A DNA stretch of 17,549 bases from an uncultured archaeon (GTDB taxonomy: Archaea > Asgardarchaeota > Lokiarchaeia > Sigyniarchaeales > Promethearchaeaceae): contig CAYRPF010000007.1 in the NCBI GenBank assembly GCA_964426185.1, positions 1-17,549 of the forward strand. The letters run 5' to 3'. The notes under the pieces were generated by a model. It saw nothing but the letters and a program-made list of their open reading frames with translations, was not told where the DNA came from and searched no databases. A program made the position numbers and the translations under genes. Within the stretch, counting starts at the first letter, position 1; every line of letters begins with the position of its first letter. Shown here piece by piece: positions 5,471-14,204 of the stretch.

Positions 5471-6379
5471 TTAATTTTGCTTTTTTGTGTTTAAACAGCT
5501 TAATAACTTCGCAATTTCTTGTTTGATCCATGAATGAGATGGAGTTGTATTCGTGCGCTTGATGTAATATATGATTTTTGAAAAAAGCGGGTAATAAAAA
5601 TCTTGTAGTTCTTGAATAACTTGAGGAATTTGAAAGGGAATGTTTCCTGTTTCATCTAGGTAATTATTGGAGAATATACACTGAAAAGGATCTGAAGTTT
5701 CCCAAAAATCTCCTAATAATTGGAAAATTTCTTCATCTTTCTGATAATCAAATAAAGGTTGAATCAAAGAAACATGATGATTTTGTAAAAATGTTGGAAA
5801 TAGGGAAAGAATTTCAGGTAATTGGTTTAATTTCAAATGATTTTCATGAGCGGATCGTTCTCCTGATATCAAAGTAGAACTTCCGATATGATTAACCAAA
5901 GGCACGCGCATCATGTGAAAAAATAAATGACAAGCAGGACAAGGTGAATAAGCCCTAAAATACTTTTGAATTATCGCCATCGGTTGAATGATTGCCCATT
6001 CAAATAATTCGGCAACATTTACATAAAAAAAGCGCATGGGAATTTCTCCGAATCTTTTTTGAATTAGTAATTGGATTTTTTTAAAATGTTCGATTGGTTC
6101 GTTGAAATTTCCATACAATCCATGATGATACATTGCAAATCCGATAATTTCTGAAATATTGTGCTGTTTGTTAACTGTAGAACCAACTAATCCCAATATT
6201 TTTTCCATTATAGGGATTAATGCCGCTACGCTATCTTTTCCAGCCACTTCAAAGCAAATTCGAGTAAGATCATGCGGTGCAGCGGGTATCATTTGTAAAA
6301 AGGAATCAATGGTGAAAAGATCAGCAGTTTTATCGCGTTTATTCCAATTCTTCATAAAGTTGGCAATTATTTTCTCCAT
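5471..6379 (-). CDS. Uncharacterised PP-loop-like (adenine nucleotide alpha-hydrolase/HUP) protein with CxxCH and a distal Cys
   Basis: Variant PP-loop CFEVAGKDSVAA, YSPCPACH, LISGER, LIQPL, FQCIF. SD-like GAGGGG upstream of the ATG. Confidence 0.65.
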   Translation of the reverse strand: MEKIIANFMKNWNKRDKTADLFTIDSFLQMIPAAPHDLTRICFEVAGKDSVAALIPIMEKILGLVGSTVNKQHNISEIIGFAMYHHGLYGNFNEPIEHFKKIQLLIQKRFGEIPMRFFYVNVAELFEWAIIQPMAIIQKYFRAYSPCPACHLFFHMMRVPLVNHIGSSTLISGERSAHENHLKLNQLPEILSLFPTFLQNHHVSLIQPLFDYQKDEEIFQLLGDFWETSDPFQCIFSNNYLDETGNIPFQIPQVIQELQDFYYPLFSKIIYYIKRTNTTPSHSWIKQEIAKLLSCLNTKKQN

Positions 6380-6441
6380 TGTGTCCCCTCTATTATAACT
6401 ATTCCATGTATATAGAAATTTTCACAGTAGAAAAGAGTTGC

Positions 6442-7422
6442 TCACATCAGTGTTAAAAAAAACATTTCAAATAGTGTGACCGGTCGATTAAAATTTTTGA
6501 TATAATATTGATCTAAATTCACTGCATGATTAAATTCATGTTTGTACTTCTCTGCAAAAATATCATAGATTTCTGATTGACGGGATATAAAAAGACCTAT
6601 TAAAGAATTATCCGGTGAAGTGGAATATTGAATCAGTTCCCGATTATCTCTCAACAAAAAATTAGTAATAACCTTCGAGGAAACCCGAATGTTAATTGAA
6701 GGTAAATTAATATCAGCTTTTGTTTCATCTTCTAATTTTCGAAAATTTATGTCTTTCATCATATCATTAATGGAATGAACATAGTCTTCTGTTAGGAGCA
6801 CTTCTATATTAATGTTGGGTATGGCTGATTGCCATTTTTTACAATAATCTTTAAGCATTACAACCGTTCCCTCTTTATCTTCAGATATTTTTTTCAGAAT
6901 GTTTTTCAATTTTTCATTAAATGGGGTTTTTATGATATCTCCTTTAACAAATTTAATAACTTCTGATTCTCCTACAATATCTGAATTAAAAAATTTTGGA
7001 GTATAATGAGTTGCACTAATGGAAATAAATTCTACTGGAGGAACTGAAATATTATCTGGATTTAAGTTATAGGTTCTCAGAAAATTCTGAAAGCTAATCT
7101 CGCAATTTTCAATTCGATGGTCTGCTTCTAACCGAATTTCCTTGATTTTTTCCGAGATCAAGATCTCCCAAGATGTAATTGGATTTTTAATATTTACGAT
7201 CATCGGACGATTATAAACTTGAATTAAACCCAGTTTCTCAAGTAATTGAATGACTTTATAGGTCCGCTTCAATGAAATTCCGCTGATTTCAACAAATTCT
7301 TTGATATCGGCCACACTTTGCTTTTGAAGAAGTATGTCATACACATATTCAATACCCTTTTCACGGATGTCGATAGCATGGAAAAGATCTACTAAGAATG
7401 TAATTCTTTCTTCTTGATTCAT
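6442..7422 (-). CDS. TrmB-family-like transcriptional regulator (N-terminal winged HTH, coiled linker, putative C-terminal effector domain)
   Basis: YVYDILL...KEFVEISGISLKRTYKVIQLLEKLGLI...RPMIVNIKNP matches the TrmB N-terminal wHTH pattern. C-terminal FLLRDNRELI...FAEKYKHEFNHAVNL resembles TrmB effector domains. Start is GTG 7431, ATG 7428 or ATG 7422 (the last follows a GGTGA SD). Confidence 0.78.
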   Translation of the reverse strand: MNQEERITFLVDLFHAIDIREKGIEYVYDILLQKQSVADIKEFVEISGISLKRTYKVIQLLEKLGLIQVYNRPMIVNIKNPITSWEILISEKIKEIRLEADHRIENCEISFQNFLRTYNLNPDNISVPPVEFISISATHYTPKFFNSDIVGESEVIKFVKGDIIKTPFNEKLKNILKKISEDKEGTVVMLKDYCKKWQSAIPNINIEVLLTEDYVHSINDMMKDINFRKLEDETKADINLPSINIRVSSKVITNFLLRDNRELIQYSTSPDNSLIGLFISRQSEIYDIFAEKYKHEFNHAVNLDQYYIKNFNRPVTLFEMFFLTLM

Positions 7423-7432
7423 TTTCATCACC

Positions 7433-7972
7433 CTAATGCAGTTTCAATCCTTCAATCCGCTTTAACATGTGTTTGGTCAATTTTTCAAACAACTTCTCCA
7501 CATTTTCACCCGATTTCGCCGAAGTTTCAATATATTCTGCCAGGTTATTTTGAATCGCTGTTTGTATCCCATGATCTTCAGGAATTTTACGCAATTCGGT
7601 AAGATCTTTCTTATTTCCAACTAAAAATATCGGTACATCTGGGTTTTTCTCCCTAACTATTCCAGTCCATGATTCCAAAGCAAGTAGCGTTTCGGGCCGG
7701 GTTAAATCAAACAAGAAAATTGCACCAGAAGATCCTAAACAATAAGTCGGTAGAAGAAAACGAAATCGCGATTCCCCCCCGAGGTCCCAAATTTGTAATT
7801 TGATTAATTTATCTTTATATTGAATAGTTTTGACAAAGAACTCCACGCCTACAGTGAGTTTAATATCTTCAGAGAAGATTCCATGAACGTATCTATCTGA
7901 TAGGGAGGATTTACCAGTAGAGGCGGAGCCGAGCATTAAAATTTTGAACGTGTAATCGATATCCCGTGACAT
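7433..7972 (-). CDS. Rab-like (Ras superfamily) small GTPase, Asgard type, no C-terminal prenylation motif
   Basis: G1 GSASTGKS, G2 LTVGVEF, G3 IWDLGG, G4 VGNKKD, G5 ETSAKSG. Rab-like YTFKILMLG, KLQIWD and RFRFLLPTY. Ends EGLKLH with no Cys. Confidence 0.95.
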   Translation of the reverse strand: MSRDIDYTFKILMLGSASTGKSSLSDRYVHGIFSEDIKLTVGVEFFVKTIQYKDKLIKLQIWDLGGESRFRFLLPTYCLGSSGAIFLFDLTRPETLLALESWTGIVREKNPDVPIFLVGNKKDLTELRKIPEDHGIQTAIQNNLAEYIETSAKSGENVEKLFEKLTKHMLKRIEGLKLH

Positions 7973-8000
7973 ATTTTTTCACTAAATTCAAGATGTAGAA

Positions 8001-8017
8001 TTGCATTCGGAATGTAA
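8001..8017. promoter_or_regulatory. 17-bp imperfect palindrome, candidate operator of the GTPase-TrmB unit
   Basis: TTGCATTC-G-GAATGTAA (7/8 arm match), 28 nt upstream of the GTPase ATG. Confidence 0.5.
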
Positions 8018-8030
8018 AATTCAGTATTTT

Positions 8031-8037
8031 TTTTATA
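8031..8037 (-). promoter_or_regulatory. Candidate TATA box for the GTPase-TrmB unit
   Basis: Minus-strand TATAAAA about 60 nt upstream of ATG 7972. The AT-rich background lowers specificity. Confidence 0.4.
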
Positions 8038-8128
8038 GATTCGAACAATCAGAAGTTTGTTCTCTTCCTTAATTAAGTTAGCTGTAGAAGAACAAAAACT
8101 TTATCAATTTTTGTGTAAATCGTATGAT

Positions 8129-8785
8129 ATGGTTGAAATCATATTCGACCCAAGCGCTCCTTACTCCGTTTCTATTATAAGAAATTGGAAAGATCATCGA
8201 GATTATCTGTATGCACTGGGAATTTTTCTTCTTGCCTTCACTGTTTTTGGGATTTTAGCTTGGATTAATAATTATCCTTCTAAAAAAGGCTTGCTAATAT
8301 GGATTGGAATTTTGATTATTCTATTCTTTTGGTTTTTTCTGCCTTCAAAATATTTGATTATGGATCTCGACAAAGATAGATGGAAGATTCAAATTGGTAT
8401 TTGGCGTGCAAAGATTTCCCTTGAATCAGGAAAATTGACGGATATTGAATATATTCAGATTGAGGAGGTTATTAGAGATAATAGGGATTCTTCGAAAAAA
8501 TTGACGTTAAACATTCAAGAATATACAATTAAGTTTCAGTTAATTGGATTTAAATCGATGCAGCATAAAACGGGGAAAATTTTAAAGGTGAATGAATCTG
8601 AAAAGAAAGTTGAATTCATAAGAAATACCACCTTTAATTTCCGCGCTCATCTCGTTAAGTTAAAAGATTATACAGATATTGCAAAAACATTGACAGAATT
8701 CTTTCAAGGGTTGGAAATCCCTATAGATCTTATATATGAAAGAAATGTATATCAAAATGGAGAATTAATTAGTGCAAATAACTAA
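8129..8785 (+). CDS. Membrane protein with two TM helices and a beta-rich (possibly PH-like) soluble domain
   Basis: Hydrophobic segments YLYALGIFLLAFTVFGILAWI and GLLIWIGILIILFFWFFLP, then a series of beta strands ending in helix YTDIAKTLTEFF. ATG 8129 preferred over TTG 8057. Confidence 0.7.
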   Translation: MVEIIFDPSAPYSVSIIRNWKDHRDYLYALGIFLLAFTVFGILAWINNYPSKKGLLIWIGILIILFFWFFLPSKYLIMDLDKDRWKIQIGIWRAKISLESGKLTDIEYIQIEEVIRDNRDSSKKLTLNIQEYTIKFQLIGFKSMQHKTGKILKVNESEKKVEFIRNTTFNFRAHLVKLKDYTDIAKTLTEFFQGLEIPIDLIYERNVYQNGELISANN

Positions 8786-8821: not shown

Positions 8822-9613
8822 TTACCATTTCTCCAGCTGTTCCTGAATAATCAACTTCAATGGTGGGTAATTTTCTCGAATTAGAGATTGATTCAAGATT
8901 TTTTTCGCTTTCTTTCCCCCTAAATCAGAAATTGCTTCAATAACCGCTTTTCTTACTCCCAAATCACTATCATTTAAAAAGGGGAGAAGTTTAGAAAGCC
9001 ATTTGCGGTCTCTTGATTTTCCTAAAACTTGAATTGCTCTGATACGTATAAGAAAATCAGGATTATTTAATTCTTCTACAGCTAGCCGTAGATTTTGTGG
9101 ATTTATCCGATGTAAAACCTTTAAGACAATTTCTCTTTTTCGTCTACTTCTGGTTTTTAACGAATTTTCTAATATCGGTTCTGCGATGAGAGGATATAGA
9201 AGAAGTGTTTTAATGGCTTCTTTTTGGAGTGGGGGGTGTGAATGAAAAATTAATGGAAAAACCAGAGGAATTAACGATTCATCTTGAAGTTTTTGGATGA
9301 TTTTAATGCCTTTAATTTGATAAATTGGGCGTGTGGCATGAATTAAGAAACTCAGACAATTTTGCCGATACCATTCAGGATCTTCAAGGTTTACTAAGTT
9401 TTCCAAAAAAAAAGGTAGAATTTTTCCCGGTAGGAAATTTAGAATTTGCGATAAATATTCTTTGAAGTGGGAATATTTCTGATTTTTCATGTCTTCGATA
9501 AACAAGTGTTTTAAGTGAATTATTTGATTGTCTGAAATTACAGAAAGTGATGAATAATTCCATTGATCAATGTATTGAAATGCTTTTGAAGGATGTGCAG
9601 ATTTTTCGGCCAT
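8822..9613 (-). CDS. HEAT-repeat (PBS-lyase-like) protein
   Basis: Repeats LNNPDFLIRIRAIQVLG, LLPFLNDSDLGVRKAVIEAISDLG and LIFHSHPPLQKEAIKTL. Confidence 0.85.
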   Translation of the reverse strand: MAEKSAHPSKAFQYIDQWNYSSLSVISDNQIIHLKHLFIEDMKNQKYSHFKEYLSQILNFLPGKILPFFLENLVNLEDPEWYRQNCLSFLIHATRPIYQIKGIKIIQKLQDESLIPLVFPLIFHSHPPLQKEAIKTLLLYPLIAEPILENSLKTRSRRKREIVLKVLHRINPQNLRLAVEELNNPDFLIRIRAIQVLGKSRDRKWLSKLLPFLNDSDLGVRKAVIEAISDLGGKKAKKILNQSLIRENYPPLKLIIQEQLEKW

Positions 9614-9887: not shown

Positions 9888-12800
9888 ATGGAAAAGACAG
9901 ACTGGATACTTAATTCGGTAAATTTAGAAATATTAGAGTATTTAGATAAACCAGCTGTCATTTTTACCCCATTGGGTGATATCAAGTTTGTAAATAGTGA
10001 AGCGGAGACTTTTTTTAACATTACCGCAGAAAATTTAGAGCAAAGATCATTATTTGAATTTTTAAGCAAACGCAGTATTCAAAAAATTGAAGGAATAATA
10101 GAGCAAGATCCATTTTTAGAAGCGGAAAGAATTTACCTTCAATTTCATTTTCAATCGCAAGCACAAAAATTTAAGATATATGCTCATATCAGTTTAGTCC
10201 ATCGGAATGAATCAAGTAAATTATTTTTACTGATCCTAGAAAAAAATAATAAGGAAAATGGAAATGAATCAAGTGATTCATATTCCAAATTTTCTTCACG
10301 AATGACTCGATTTCTTGAGGATAGACGTCTTTTTTATAATATAATTGAATTAAATCCTTTACCAATAGCGATATTTAATTCAAACGGTAATTTTCTTCAT
10401 GCAAATCAAGTTTTTTACCAAATATTTAAAAATGAGCCTTCTTCAGAATATTCTTTATACGAAGATCTCCAACTCCTGGAACAAGAAGGATTTTATGAGG
10501 GTATGCTGAATTTAAAATCAGGAACATCATTTTGTTTAACCAAAACTCGCTTGAATTTTGGATTTTCCACTAAGGAAACTCAAAATCAAGATGGAAATAA
10601 TCAATGGTTCAATATTACATTTTTTGGGTTATGGGATCAAGAAGAGCAAGTTTATTATCCCGTACTGATATTTGAAGATATTTCAAAACAAGTCGAATCT
10701 ACCCACCAACTAGAAAAATATCAACAACGACTTAAAGATCGCATTGAATTGGAGACGAATACCTTTCGAGAATTTCTCCGTCAAAATCCCCATGGCGTCG
10801 CAATATTTGATTCAGAAGGGAGGTTTATTGAATCCAATAAGGCATTTGACAAAATTTTAGGCTTCAAACTTACTTCTGAATTTATTTTATTTCATTCCAC
10901 CTTGATTAAAAAATACTCGCTGGAAAAAGAATATCAAAGGCTTATAACTGGAAATGTTGTTTCAATTCCTTCGTTACAAATCCCAAAACATTTATTTAAA
11001 GAATTTCCTCCTCATGATTTAGCATTACGTATAATAGGAATACCAATTTTCGATAATAACAATAATGTGCATCGGTTAATTCTCATGTTTGAAGATAAAA
11101 CGCAGCAGTCAATAACGGAGAAAAATCTGGAATTCGAACGAAAACAGATGATGTCTATTTTTGACAGTTTTCCTGAAATTACTTATGTTTTTAACCCATT
11201 GAATGATGAAATTCTCTTTACTAACCAGAAATTGAAGGAAATTTGCATTCAAGAAGCTAATGTCGAGCCGATCATCTTCGAATTAAACAATAAAATTTCT
11301 GATTTATTAGATCTTTATCATCATAATTCATATTTTTTGGATTTACCTATTAGGTTTGAGCATTATCATACAAAATTAAAGAAATTTTATCTAATTTCTT
11401 TTAGGAGCATCAAATGGGAAGAAAATATTCCTGCAATTTTAATATTTGCCATTGATATCACAGATCGGAGGAATATTGAACAAGAACTTGAATTTCGTTT
11501 GAAATTTCAAGAAAAACTAGCCGAAATTTCCTCGCAATTCATAGAAACTTATAATTATCGCTTAGTAATTGAAAAATCTCTTGAAAAGATTGCTAGATTT
11601 TTGAAATGTTCTGATATCATGTTGTTTGAGTTCAAGACCCAAATGCAAGATTCAGTGGATTTGAAACAAAAGAACTTCCAATTTACCCCACCCTACCCAT
11701 CAAATATGATTGATGTAGAATTGCTCAGTCGTTGGAGCAAAGAAGGTTTCGACATTTCTAAAACTGCCATTTCAACTTTTAAATTAAATCGTAATTCCCC
11801 GTTTTTTAAAGTTATTCAACGTGAATCATGGATTACCTTTAAATATACTAAAAATAATCCTCTTTATCCATTAATTTTTGAAAAAATTTTCCCGAAAATG
11901 AATGAAAACTTATCAGTTTTCCTCCCCATTCATCATCATGACACCATAATTGGAATTTTATATGTTCGCTATTCATCGCCTCATATTACTCACGATTATT
12001 TTACTTTGCTAAAGTTTTATTGTGATTTACTGGGAAATGCCATTGATCGATATCAATTTGAATCACAAATCTTCAAAGAACGACAAATATTCGAACAAAT
12101 TATGCTATCAAATCCGTTTGGAATTTCTGTATTTGATAAAGAAGGAAATTTCATTTCTGCTAATCCAATCATAGAATCTTTTTTTGGCAATTTACTAAAA
12201 GATCCTTCAAAAAAGCTAAATCTCTTTCGTGATAGAATTTTCGCTTATCATGGGATTTTAGAAAAAATTAAGAATGTTTTAAAGGGTGAAGTTGTCAAAA
12301 TACCTTCTTTACAGATTAACTCTGACACTTTTCCCGAATCTCATTTAAAGCATCCATATGTGTTTAAGATAACTTGCTTTCCACTAAAAAAGAGAAAGGA
12401 TTCCTCTGTACATTCAGTAAATTCATTAAATTTCACGATTAAAAACCAATTAGAATATGAAGAAGTTGAATATATAGTTATAATTATGGAAAATATTACC
12501 GATATAATTCAAATGCAGAATAATTTAATAGAGACTGAGAAGAAATATACCGAATTGTTTTCAAATTCCTCCTTAGGAATTACTATTGCAGATTTTGAGG
12601 GAAATATTTTAGAAGCGAATAATACATACTTTAAAATTGTTAATTGTCCTCGTGAGAAAATAAATGAACTCGATCCAAGAGAATTATTTGCAAATTCTGA
12701 AGATCGAGCAAAAATCTTGAAAAAATTAGAAAAGAGTAATCGTGTTGATAATATTCGCCTACAACTAAAGAAATATACAGGTGAATTATATTGGGGATTA

Positions 12801-14204
12801 GTTTCGATTTATAAATTTAAAATTCTTGAAAAATCTTATGCTTTTGTGACTCAAATTGATATCACCAAAGAAGTGCAAATGCAGCAAAATTTGGCTGAAA
12901 GTGAGCGAAAATTTCATGCTTTGGTAGAAAGTAGTAATGATATGATTTGGGAAATCGACAAACACGGTAATTTTAATTATATGAGTCCAGCATGCTTACC
13001 AATTCTTGGTTATCCTCCTGAATTTTATATTGGAAAGAATATTGATTATTTAAATCCAACAGAGGAATATAAGAATAAAATTTGGCCCCAATTTATGGAT
13101 TTTTTTAAAAAACCAGAAGAATCAAATGGCAACTTTCTTCATCCAAATTATATTTTCGAATGCTATCATAAAAATGGTAAAAAAGTTTATCTCGAAGCAA
13201 ATGGAGTGCCAATTAGAGATAAGAATGGAAAAATTATGGGAATTCGCGGGATAATAAGAGATATTACTGAAAGAAAAGTTGCTGAAGAAAAAATTAGGGC
13301 ATCAGAATCTCTTTATCGGAATATGGTTGAAACTTCGGATAATTTAATTTTTATTTTAGATAAAAAAGGAAAAATTCAATTTGCAAATCCCACCGCTTCA
13401 CAATTGTTAGGTTATTCGCTGGAGTATCTCCAAAAAATCAAATTAAGCCTTTTATTAATTGGTGAAGAAAAAGATTTTTGGCTCACATTGATAGAGAAAA
13501 CTCTTACTGGTGAAAAACAAAAAAATGTGGAATTTCATTTTGTTACAAATTCTGGAAATTTATTGCTGGTTCAAACAAATTCCACCCCATTATATAATTC
13601 TAAAGGTATGGTACAAAAAATTCTTTGCATATCTTCGGATATTACTGAAATTCGGAAAAAAGAACTAGAATTACATGATAGAGAATTGAATTTACAGTAT
13701 GCAAATGTAATTTCAATGGTTTCTTCTATGCTTATTCATAATTCTTCTCAAAAAGAAATTAATATTAGTCCAATTATTCGCACTTTAGGAAATAGTATTA
13801 AAGCGGATTATATCTTTGCATTTATGCGTGATTTTTCTTTTAAACAAATAACTATGAAAGTTCATGATATCTGGCAGAAATCTTCTGATTACATTCCCGA
13901 TTTACATTTAGTGGAAATGCCCCTATTAAATTATTTAGAAATTACTGCACATGAAAAAAGACCGATTGAAGTAATTCGAACAATCAATATTAAAGAATTT
14001 TTGCCAGACATGCAGTCCATTATAAATCATCTTGATTTTAAAAAGATGATTGAAGTTCCAATCTATCTAAACAAAGAAATCGCAGGGCATTTACTTCTAA
14101 TCTCCACTCGACCTGATTTTGAATTTTCTGACCATGCCAAGAAGTTGGTACTAAATGTGGCCATGTTAATTGGTTTTGCTTTAAAGCAGAGAATGGAAAA
14201 ATAA
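9888..14204 (+). CDS. Giant cytoplasmic multi-PAS/GAF sensor protein (about 8 PAS + 2 GAF-like), no recognisable output domain
   Basis: Repeated PAS openings (PAVIFTPLGDIKFVN, PIAIFNSNGNFLHAN, GVAIFDSEGRFIESN, GISVFDKEGNFISAN, GITIADFEGNILEAN, MIWEIDKHGNFNYMS, LIFILDKKGKIQFAN) and PAC ends (DITDRR, DITKE, RDITERK, SDITE). GAF-like FLPIHHHDTIIGILYV and EVPIYLNKEIAGHLLL. No H-box, HATPase G-boxes or GGDEF. Confidence 0.9.
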   Translation: MEKTDWILNSVNLEILEYLDKPAVIFTPLGDIKFVNSEAETFFNITAENLEQRSLFEFLSKRSIQKIEGIIEQDPFLEAERIYLQFHFQSQAQKFKIYAHISLVHRNESSKLFLLILEKNNKENGNESSDSYSKFSSRMTRFLEDRRLFYNIIELNPLPIAIFNSNGNFLHANQVFYQIFKNEPSSEYSLYEDLQLLEQEGFYEGMLNLKSGTSFCLTKTRLNFGFSTKETQNQDGNNQWFNITFFGLWDQEEQVYYPVLIFEDISKQVESTHQLEKYQQRLKDRIELETNTFREFLRQNPHGVAIFDSEGRFIESNKAFDKILGFKLTSEFILFHSTLIKKYSLEKEYQRLITGNVVSIPSLQIPKHLFKEFPPHDLALRIIGIPIFDNNNNVHRLILMFEDKTQQSITEKNLEFERKQMMSIFDSFPEITYVFNPLNDEILFTNQKLKEICIQEANVEPIIFELNNKISDLLDLYHHNSYFLDLPIRFEHYHTKLKKFYLISFRSIKWEENIPAILIFAIDITDRRNIEQELEFRLKFQEKLAEISSQFIETYNYRLVIEKSLEKIARFLKCSDIMLFEFKTQMQDSVDLKQKNFQFTPPYPSNMIDVELLSRWSKEGFDISKTAISTFKLNRNSPFFKVIQRESWITFKYTKNNPLYPLIFEKIFPKMNENLSVFLPIHHHDTIIGILYVRYSSPHITHDYFTLLKFYCDLLGNAIDRYQFESQIFKERQIFEQIMLSNPFGISVFDKEGNFISANPIIESFFGNLLKDPSKKLNLFRDRIFAYHGILEKIKNVLKGEVVKIPSLQINSDTFPESHLKHPYVFKITCFPLKKRKDSSVHSVNSLNFTIKNQLEYEEVEYIVIIMENITDIIQMQNNLIETEKKYTELFSNSSLGITIADFEGNILEANNTYFKIVNCPREKINELDPRELFANSEDRAKILKKLEKSNRVDNIRLQLKKYTGELYWGLVSIYKFKILEKSYAFVTQIDITKEVQMQQNLAESERKFHALVESSNDMIWEIDKHGNFNYMSPACLPILGYPPEFYIGKNIDYLNPTEEYKNKIWPQFMDFFKKPEESNGNFLHPNYIFECYHKNGKKVYLEANGVPIRDKNGKIMGIRGIIRDITERKVAEEKIRASESLYRNMVETSDNLIFILDKKGKIQFANPTASQLLGYSLEYLQKIKLSLLLIGEEKDFWLTLIEKTLTGEKQKNVEFHFVTNSGNLLLVQTNSTPLYNSKGMVQKILCISSDITEIRKKELELHDRELNLQYANVISMVSSMLIHNSSQKEINISPIIRTLGNSIKADYIFAFMRDFSFKQITMKVHDIWQKSSDYIPDLHLVEMPLLNYLEITAHEKRPIEVIRTINIKEFLPDMQSIINHLDFKKMIEVPIYLNKEIAGHLLLISTRPDFEFSDHAKKLVLNVAMLIGFALKQRMEK

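Follow-up and report, generated by a model that had tools for sequence, protein, structure and literature searches.

The stretch of DNA analysed here, referred to as the window, is contig C7 (17,549 nt) of a 3.26-Mb, 92%-complete Asgard genome. Three genes lie side by side on its minus strand: a gene for a small Ras/Rab-like GTPase of 179 amino acids (aa) (P0001; positions 7433-7972, stop codon TAG at 7435-7433), a TrmB-like gene coding for 326 aa (6442-7422, the longest open reading frame (ORF) being 6442-7431; stop codon TGA at 6444-6442) and a gene for a PP-loop-fold protein of 302 aa (P0003; 5471-6379, start codon ATG at 6379). A first-pass annotation, made from the letters of the sequence, had described these genes as a candidate GTPase-controlled transcription module. 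Re-reading of the sequence bore out all its coordinates: the three genes are co-oriented on the minus strand, the GTPase gene ends in TAG, and 62 nt separate the TrmB-like stop codon from the ATG of the third gene. The analysis described below identified the GTPase and TrmB-like genes as a real, conserved two-gene module.

Conservation of the GTPase-TrmB-like gene pair

The stop codon of the GTPase gene is directly followed by GGTGATGAAAATG, in which GTG 7431, ATG 7428 and ATG 7422 can be read. The TrmB-like orthologues start with MNQEE or MNTDG and the gene as called in the database encodes 326 aa (P0004), and therefore ATG 7422 is the likely start of the gene, leaving an intergenic spacer of 10 nt (7423-7432, minus strand). 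The alternative starts are 7428 and 7431; residue numbers given below follow the 328-aa form, P0002. A Shine-Dalgarno-like motif, GGTGA (7432-7428), is located in the spacer, 5 nt upstream from ATG 7422, in agreement with the first-pass observation that such a motif and a start codon lie within 1-10 nt of the GTPase stop. The spacer is too short to house a separate promoter.

The TrmB-like family is small, with 42 cluster representatives among 1.8 billion proteins, and of 400 genomes from the phylum 125 contain the gene, in one copy each. The strong matches all belong to the window's own order, where they were found in 12 of 13 genomes of family f1, in the only genome of f2 and in 110 of 135 genomes of f3; the sole match outside the order was weak and restricted to the winged helix.

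The GTPase gene was found directly upstream from the TrmB-like gene, on the same strand, in 48 of the 49 assemblies examined from the order. These 48 comprise 44 species genomes of f1, f2 and f3 (30 search loci and 14 further genomes) and four assemblies identified by exact look-up. The gaps between the two genes, calculated from the longest ORFs, were mostly 0-21 nt and at most 42 nt, apart from two or three start-calling artefacts, and the pairing persisted at identities of 27-31% for the TrmB-like protein and 49-57% for the GTPase. The sole exception was found in genome G278 (C298:858-4384, locus L054), where two TrmB-like copies are arranged in tandem and no GTPase gene accompanies them; the contig is 5.5 kb long and the genome, in 700 contigs, has about 6% contamination. 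Five near-complete genomes of genus g19 lack both the TrmB-like gene and the orthologous GTPase, but this co-absence is not independent evidence, since a single deletion or assembly gap would remove two adjacent genes together.

Exact look-up identified the pair in Promethearchaeum syntrophicum MK-D1 (DSAG12_02406/QEE16576.1, TrmB-like, with the Rab family GTPase QEE16577.1) and in Lokiarchaeum ossiferum (NEF87_004816 and NEF87_004817). Both cultured Asgard species are thus members of the order that carry the pair. The MK-D1 GTPase (WP_147663450.1) has been catalogued as a plain G-domain protein in the supplement of PMC10933270, in which the TrmB-like protein QEE16576 was not found.

The adjacency of the two genes could be a historical accident of gene order, with no functional link between them. 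The whole neighbourhood is colinear in f1, including the genes for a PAS-repeat protein, a HEAT-repeat protein, a 242-aa protein, YjbQ and AIP synthase, which speaks for such an accident. In f2, f3 and the f1 genera g2 and g4, however, none of the other genes of the window occurs within 6 kb of the pair, and yet the pair and its spacing persist, which argues that it travels as a unit and not merely as part of a colinear block. The single-copy presence of the pair in about 125 genomes also stands against this explanation, which was already disfavoured and which we consider very improbable. Order-wide pairing at near-zero spacing with changing flanks supports co-expression of the two genes and a functional link between their products. 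Conservation of gene order across genomes, proposed in the first-pass annotation as a check for all three genes, was therefore found for the GTPase and TrmB-like genes but not for the PP-loop gene, which was found in 12 of the 61 genomes examined from the order and not in the other 49.

The two proteins of the pair

The GTPase belongs to the Ras family (Pfam Ras, 2.2e-41; TIGR00231, 7.5e-22). The conservation of its motifs was read from an alignment of 25 orthologues (A3). The G1 motif is GSASTGKS (residues 15-22), with G15, G20 and K21 invariant; T40 of switch I and, in the G3 motif D63-L-G-G66, D63 and G66 are also invariant. G4 is NKKD (120-123), in which K121 and D123 do not vary while the Asn is variable in f3 ([NSAT]KxD), and G5 is SAK (151-153), represented by S-A/S-K across the orthologues. 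The switch II sequence GGExRFRFLLPTY is the same in all of them.

This segment contains the main departure from the Rab pattern: in WDxGGE, Glu67 replaces the Gln found at position 61 of Ras and in the WDTAGQE motif of Rab, and it was found in 25 of 25 orthologues. The description of the protein as a Rab-like GTPase consequently stood as regards the Ras family match and the retained G1-G5 motifs, but not as regards the catalytic switch-II residue. The motif was legible in 25 GTPases of this genome, seven of them with Glu and 16 with Gln at this position, and Glu marks a subclade of the GTPases of the genome. In a FastTree phylogeny of GTPase domains, in which the deep nodes are weak, the orthologues of the window GTPase were monophyletic and an unlinked paralog, C73, was their sister. 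A comparison with this C73-type paralog for group-specific residues yielded one consistent difference only, R92, and was uninformative.

The GTPase ends in GLKLH and none of the aligned orthologues has a C-terminal Cys, in line with the earlier designation of the protein as unprenylated. No prenylation-type C-terminal motif (CC, CxC or CaaX) was found in any GTPase of the genome, one of which ends in a lone Cys. From its sequence, the protein is predicted to be competent for nucleotide binding and to carry no lipid anchor.

Metagenomic proteins P0053-P0081 (Promethearchaeota/Thorarchaeota) contain GTPase domains as close to the window GTPase as its true orthologues, with profile E-values down to 5e-92. 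These domains are fused to a C-terminal extension of approximately 250-280 aa, which in P0053 ends in a Cys-rich, zinc-ribbon-like segment; P0052 consists of two such GTPase domains in tandem.

The TrmB-like protein is hardly recognizable by sequence. Against the Pfam family PF01978 (TrmB) it scored 20.5 bits, below the cut-off of 25.6, a weak match being obtained for six of seven members; the Pfam scan gave no match to PF11495, and no match was obtained in the PDB with a profile of the sequence. The structure predicted by AlphaFold2 (AF2), which is of moderate confidence (predicted local distance difference test score, pLDDT, of 65), comprises a winged helix (residues ~20-85), a long helix (87-119) and an alpha/beta PLD-like domain (~133-328). 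The long helix is placed like the amphipathic coiled-coil dimerisation helix of TrmB, but was modelled with a pLDDT of 50-57 only. In Foldseek searches the best full-length matches were TrmBL2 (5bpd, 1.7e-9) and TrmB (3qph, 3.2e-5), followed by PLD-fold proteins; residues 133-328 matched the C-terminal domains of TrmBL2 and TrmB as well as PLD-fold proteins, including the PLD-like domains of MITD1 and FAM83. With VIA-align, residues 20-95 matched winged helices of the MarR/ArsR type at a Z of about 10. Judged from the model, the name TrmB-like, proposed before any of these searches, appears right for fold and architecture, although the sequence stays below the Pfam cut-off, and the family is a very divergent one. 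A 333-aa ORF at 991-1992, considered as a possible paralogue of this protein within the window, was ruled out as unrelated.

Residue conservation in the TrmB-like family was read from alignments A1, A2 and A4. In the recognition helix K54, R55, Y57 and K58 are invariant, as are R74, P75 and M76 in the wing, Y57 being identical in 25 sequences. Profile-profile alignment placed Y57 opposite the Tyr of the RVYDSL motif in a bona fide TrmB family (A6) that these genomes also encode. This Tyr corresponds to the DNA-recognition residue Tyr50 of Pfu TrmB, which also uses Asp51 for this purpose (PMC4158304). The features that characterise a DNA-binding winged helix are thus retained in the protein. 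In the C-terminal domain a conserved loop, ELIQxSxxPxNxLxG, was found at 264-278, and the sugar-binding residues of TrmB could not be aligned onto this domain.

These features can be read in another way, in which the TrmB-fold protein, instead of being a transcription factor, is a regulator, effector or scaffold of the GTPase (a GTPase-activating protein (GAP), a guanine nucleotide exchange factor (GEF) or an adaptor) whose winged helix and PLD-like domain make contacts with proteins or membranes, possibly together with a HEAT-repeat protein. The divergence of the family, which leaves its Pfam match sub-threshold, the appearance of MITD1 and FAM83 among the fold matches, the replacement of TrmB Asp51, and the same-strand HEAT orthologue found upstream in 28 loci (see below) would all be in agreement with such a role. 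The best full-length fold matches, however, are the DNA-binding proteins TrmBL2 and TrmB; the invariant Tyr of the recognition helix, its flanking Lys and Arg residues and the wing Arg fit contact with DNA; and none of the known GAP or GEF folds was seen. We regard a role of this kind as unlikely.

Flanking genes and the upstream region

The third gene of the minus-strand row had been described as encoding a PP-loop enzyme. Its product has no Pfam or NCBIfam match, and a PDB search with its profile returned one spurious match only. The AF2 model, which is of high confidence (pLDDT 85), nevertheless agreed with the label: the best Foldseek match was YcfA (9kq7, 8.9e-8, with a template modelling (TM) score of 0.81 on the target), followed by TtuA, NcsA, GMP synthase, TilS and QueC. 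YcfA is an enzyme of the 6-thioguanine pathway, which binds ATP and GTP. The protein shares with YcfA of Erwinia amylovora and with TtuA/NcsA the fold, a PP-loop-like AGKDS motif, a CxxC following it and a later Cys, but differs from them in its identity of about 13%, in the degenerate state of the SGGxDS motif, where Ala stands for Ser-Gly, and in lacking a Pfam match. The motifs of the protein are E-[VI]-A-G-K-D-S, invariant in nine sequences, SPCPxCH, GER and C234.

The PP-loop gene follows the pair only in g1 (partly, one copy being a remnant), g5 and g6. In genus g9 it is located on another contig or far away, and it was not found in any locus of f3. Membership of this gene in the module, as the first-pass annotation had it, was not maintained: linked in three genera only, the PP-loop gene is a lineage-specific downstream neighbour, outside the core module.

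A gene for a HEAT-repeat protein of 263 aa (8822-9613, minus strand; Pfam HEAT_2, 1.4e-17) lies on the other side of the pair. Upstream from the GTPase gene, on the same strand and 95-4775 nt away, 28 loci of f1 and f3 encode a specific orthologue of this protein; in the genome of the window the orthologue scored 167 bits and the next-best HEAT protein 56. Other genes are sometimes located between the HEAT and GTPase genes, among them an AP_endonuc_2 TIM-barrel gene in several loci of f3 and f2. The HEAT protein is a loosely linked conserved neighbour of the pair, and a candidate for a third component or for an effector of the GTPase.

Divergent from the GTPase gene is a 242-aa ORF (8057-8785, plus strand) with no family match. 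It was found in f1 only, with identities of 27-28% in g5 and g6, and its relatives of 201-234 aa suggest that the true start is probably near 8125. Further upstream, a PAS-repeat protein of approximately 1440 aa is encoded at 9888-14204 (plus strand). It occupies the same place in all close f1 relatives (1433-1561 aa), and the Pfam lists of these relatives contain no output domain.

An alignment of five genus-level upstream regions (A7) revealed a block, CAGCTAACTTAATTAAGGAAGAG (8062-8084, minus strand), that is conserved within the genus and located in the divergent intergenic region. It contains the palindromic TATA-like sequence TTAATTAA and is a possible promoter element for the GTPase operon, for the divergent 242-aa gene, or for both. 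TATAAAA at 8031-8037, upstream from the GTPase gene, was not conserved in the nearest relatives.

Several candidate operators were discarded. The palindrome CATTCCGAATG (8004-8014) was not conserved even within the genus, and a GTAT-N13-17-ATAC dyad derived from a genus-level f3 alignment was found in exact form in only two of 45 loci. Enumeration of dyads upstream from a second TrmB-GTPase operon, described in the following section, gave A/T noise only.

A second TrmB-GTPase operon, the proposed mechanism and known systems

The genome of the window contains 41 Pfam Ras matches, and the TrmB winged helix is matched approximately 22 times in it. Next to GTPases, on contigs C12 and C93, the genome encodes two more TrmB proteins, each about 300 aa long.

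On C12 (45288-46785; genome G000; locus L056:2289-3783) a TrmB gene is followed by an overlapping GTPase gene on the same strand. This TrmB is a clear member of the family (PF01978, 6e-17; TrmBL2 in the PDB, 8e-14). The C12-type pair was kept in all 27 loci of the order with enough downstream sequence, and in all 13 of the best profile hits, from seven other Asgard families, where the GTPase gene overlaps the TrmB gene or lies at most about 240 nt downstream from it. The C12-type GTPase has the canonical Gln and fell in the other half of the FastTree phylogeny from the window GTPase, the deep nodes being weak as mentioned above. In profile comparison, the similarity between the two TrmB families was limited to the winged helix and the helix following it.

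On C93 (4163-7456; locus L057) a 295-aa TrmB is encoded by a gene convergent with, and overlapping, that of a Ras-family GTPase; this adjacency was kept only in g1 and g5. Upstream from the C93 GTPase gene there are genes for a DRG/Obg-like GTPase (MMR_HSR1 and TGS) and for a 159-aa protein.

The conservation of an independent C12-type operon, with a GTPase of a different lineage, shows that the coupling of TrmB-fold proteins to small GTPases recurs and is no accident of one locus. Such pairing is not unique to the locus in the window, the second TrmB-GTPase operon of this genome being the more widespread one among Asgard families. No published description of either pairing in Asgard archaea was found in the literature.

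The best-supported reading of these results is that the two products of the window pair work together. The pair would be a two-gene operon whose products signal as a unit. Most likely, the TrmB-like protein dimerises by its coiled coil and has kept the ability to bind DNA with its winged helix, and its PLD-like C-terminal domain would receive the soluble, lipid-anchor-free GTPase at the place where classical TrmB receives sugars. Whether the GTPase carries GTP or GDP would then decide on DNA binding and, with it, on transcription of the operon and perhaps of other targets. Two arguments favour the GTPase as the effector: no other ligand suggests itself for the conserved C-terminal domain, and near-zero spacing is kept in two independent TrmB-GTPase operons, as is typical of products needed in fixed proportion.

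In this specific form, with the GTPase acting together with the TrmB-like protein, taking over from the sugar effector at the C-terminal domain and governing DNA binding, the proposal is put forward tentatively, as we judge its probability to fall somewhat short of even. Control of transcription by the GTPase is a plausible hypothesis. That the lipid-free GTPase might serve a DNA-binding protein of the TrmB fold as its dedicated effector subunit, its GTP/GDP state being read out as transcription or chromatin binding, is a more doubtful step. We infer co-transcription, the contact between the GTPase and the TrmB-like protein, DNA binding and the direction of control only from the observations given above.

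The operon could, instead, be a plain autoregulated one, in which the TrmB-like protein is an ordinary local transcription factor that controls its own operon and the GTPase acts elsewhere, for example on membranes or the cytoskeleton, without contact between the two. Regulators are often encoded beside their targets and TrmB-family members are often autoregulated (PMC4158304); moreover, the winged helix keeps the invariant Tyr and the basic residues, and no GTPase-TrmB fusions were found in the sets searched. Such an arrangement is, however, at odds with the near-zero or overlapping spacing kept by two unrelated TrmB-GTPase operons over very long divergence, which is more typical of products needed in fixed proportion. 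It would also leave a large conserved C-terminal domain, with its invariant loop, without an effector, and no conserved operator was found. We consider this explanation fairly unlikely.

Several observations weigh against a GTPase-controlled regulator. The contact between the two proteins is one that we infer only, and such contact is not required where a regulator is transcribed together with the gene that it controls. Lys58 stands where TrmB has Asp51 after the recognition Tyr, so that only the Tyr half of the TrmB pair is kept. The pLDDT of the model is only 65, and its most conserved C-terminal loop lies partly in 269-282, a segment modelled with values below 50. No fusion between a GTPase and a TrmB domain was seen among the 42 representatives of the TrmB-like family, none of which is fused to anything; the C-terminal extensions of 32 long GTPase relatives (347-633 aa) gave no match to TrmB-like, TrmB or HEAT profiles; and all 64 relatives of the C12-type TrmB were unfused. 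Finally, no conserved operator was found upstream from the GTPase operon by genus-level alignments and dyad checks. Prediction of a complex, for A3 with GTP and Mg versus A4, gave scores of 0.30 and 0.17, against a mark of 0.32, and speaks neither for nor against binding.

Should the GTPase indeed control the TrmB-like protein, a small-GTPase-to-transcription switch would exist in the closest prokaryotic relatives of eukaryotes, changing how the expansion of Asgard GTPases is read. Together with the phylum-wide TrmB-GTPase operon, this would imply that a considerable part of the 'eukaryote-like' small GTPases of Asgard archaea serves gene regulation instead of membrane traffic. To our knowledge, Asgard genomes encode dozens of Ras-superfamily GTPases, almost none of which has a known partner. 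Here one GTPase lineage has a fixed neighbour, and this neighbour is a protein of DNA-binding type, not a longin, Roadblock or TRAPP protein. According to a survey of the GTPases of MK-D1, genome layout rarely helps to match GTPases to their regulators (PMC10933270). The presence of the pair in both cultured Asgard archaea adds interest, as does the parallel phylum-wide operon, and since MK-D1 and L. ossiferum carry the pair it is directly testable in existing cultures.

Relative to published knowledge, both kinds of component are known, TrmB-family proteins on the one hand and prokaryotic small-GTPase modules on the other, while their pairing as found here appears to be new. TrmBL2 and TrmB of Thermococcales (PDB 5BPD/5BOX/5BQT and 3QPH; PMC4158304) have the same succession of a winged helix with the Tyr, a long helix and a PLD-like C-terminal domain as the model of the Asgard protein. 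The Asgard protein differs from them in its sub-threshold match to PF01978 and lack of a match to PF11495, in the Lys replacing Asp51, in the absence of recognizable sugar-binding residues, and in the location of its gene directly behind that of a small GTPase, which is not known to have been described for TrmB or TrmBL2.

The Asgard operon of the C12 type, in which TrmB precedes a Rab-like GTPase, resembles the window pair in being bicistronic, in combining a TrmB-fold protein with a single-domain Ras-family GTPase, and in its overlapping or near-zero spacing. The order of its genes is reversed, its TrmB has a clear PF01978 match, its GTPase has the canonical Gln, and it occurs in many Asgard families, whereas the window pair is found in one order.

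In bacteria, two kinds of small-GTPase signalling module have been predicted: group 3 MglA with a receiver-like/winged-helix protein, and CvnA-D, the conservon of actinobacteria (Wuichet and Sogaard-Andersen 2015, PMC4316618). Like the pair described here, these place a prokaryotic Ras-superfamily GTPase beside a predicted DNA-binding or signalling partner and have been proposed to feed into transcription. They differ from it in that the GTPases are of the MglA family, with MglB/Roadblock, the DNA-binding architecture is another one and the hosts are bacteria; there too, the links have only been predicted.

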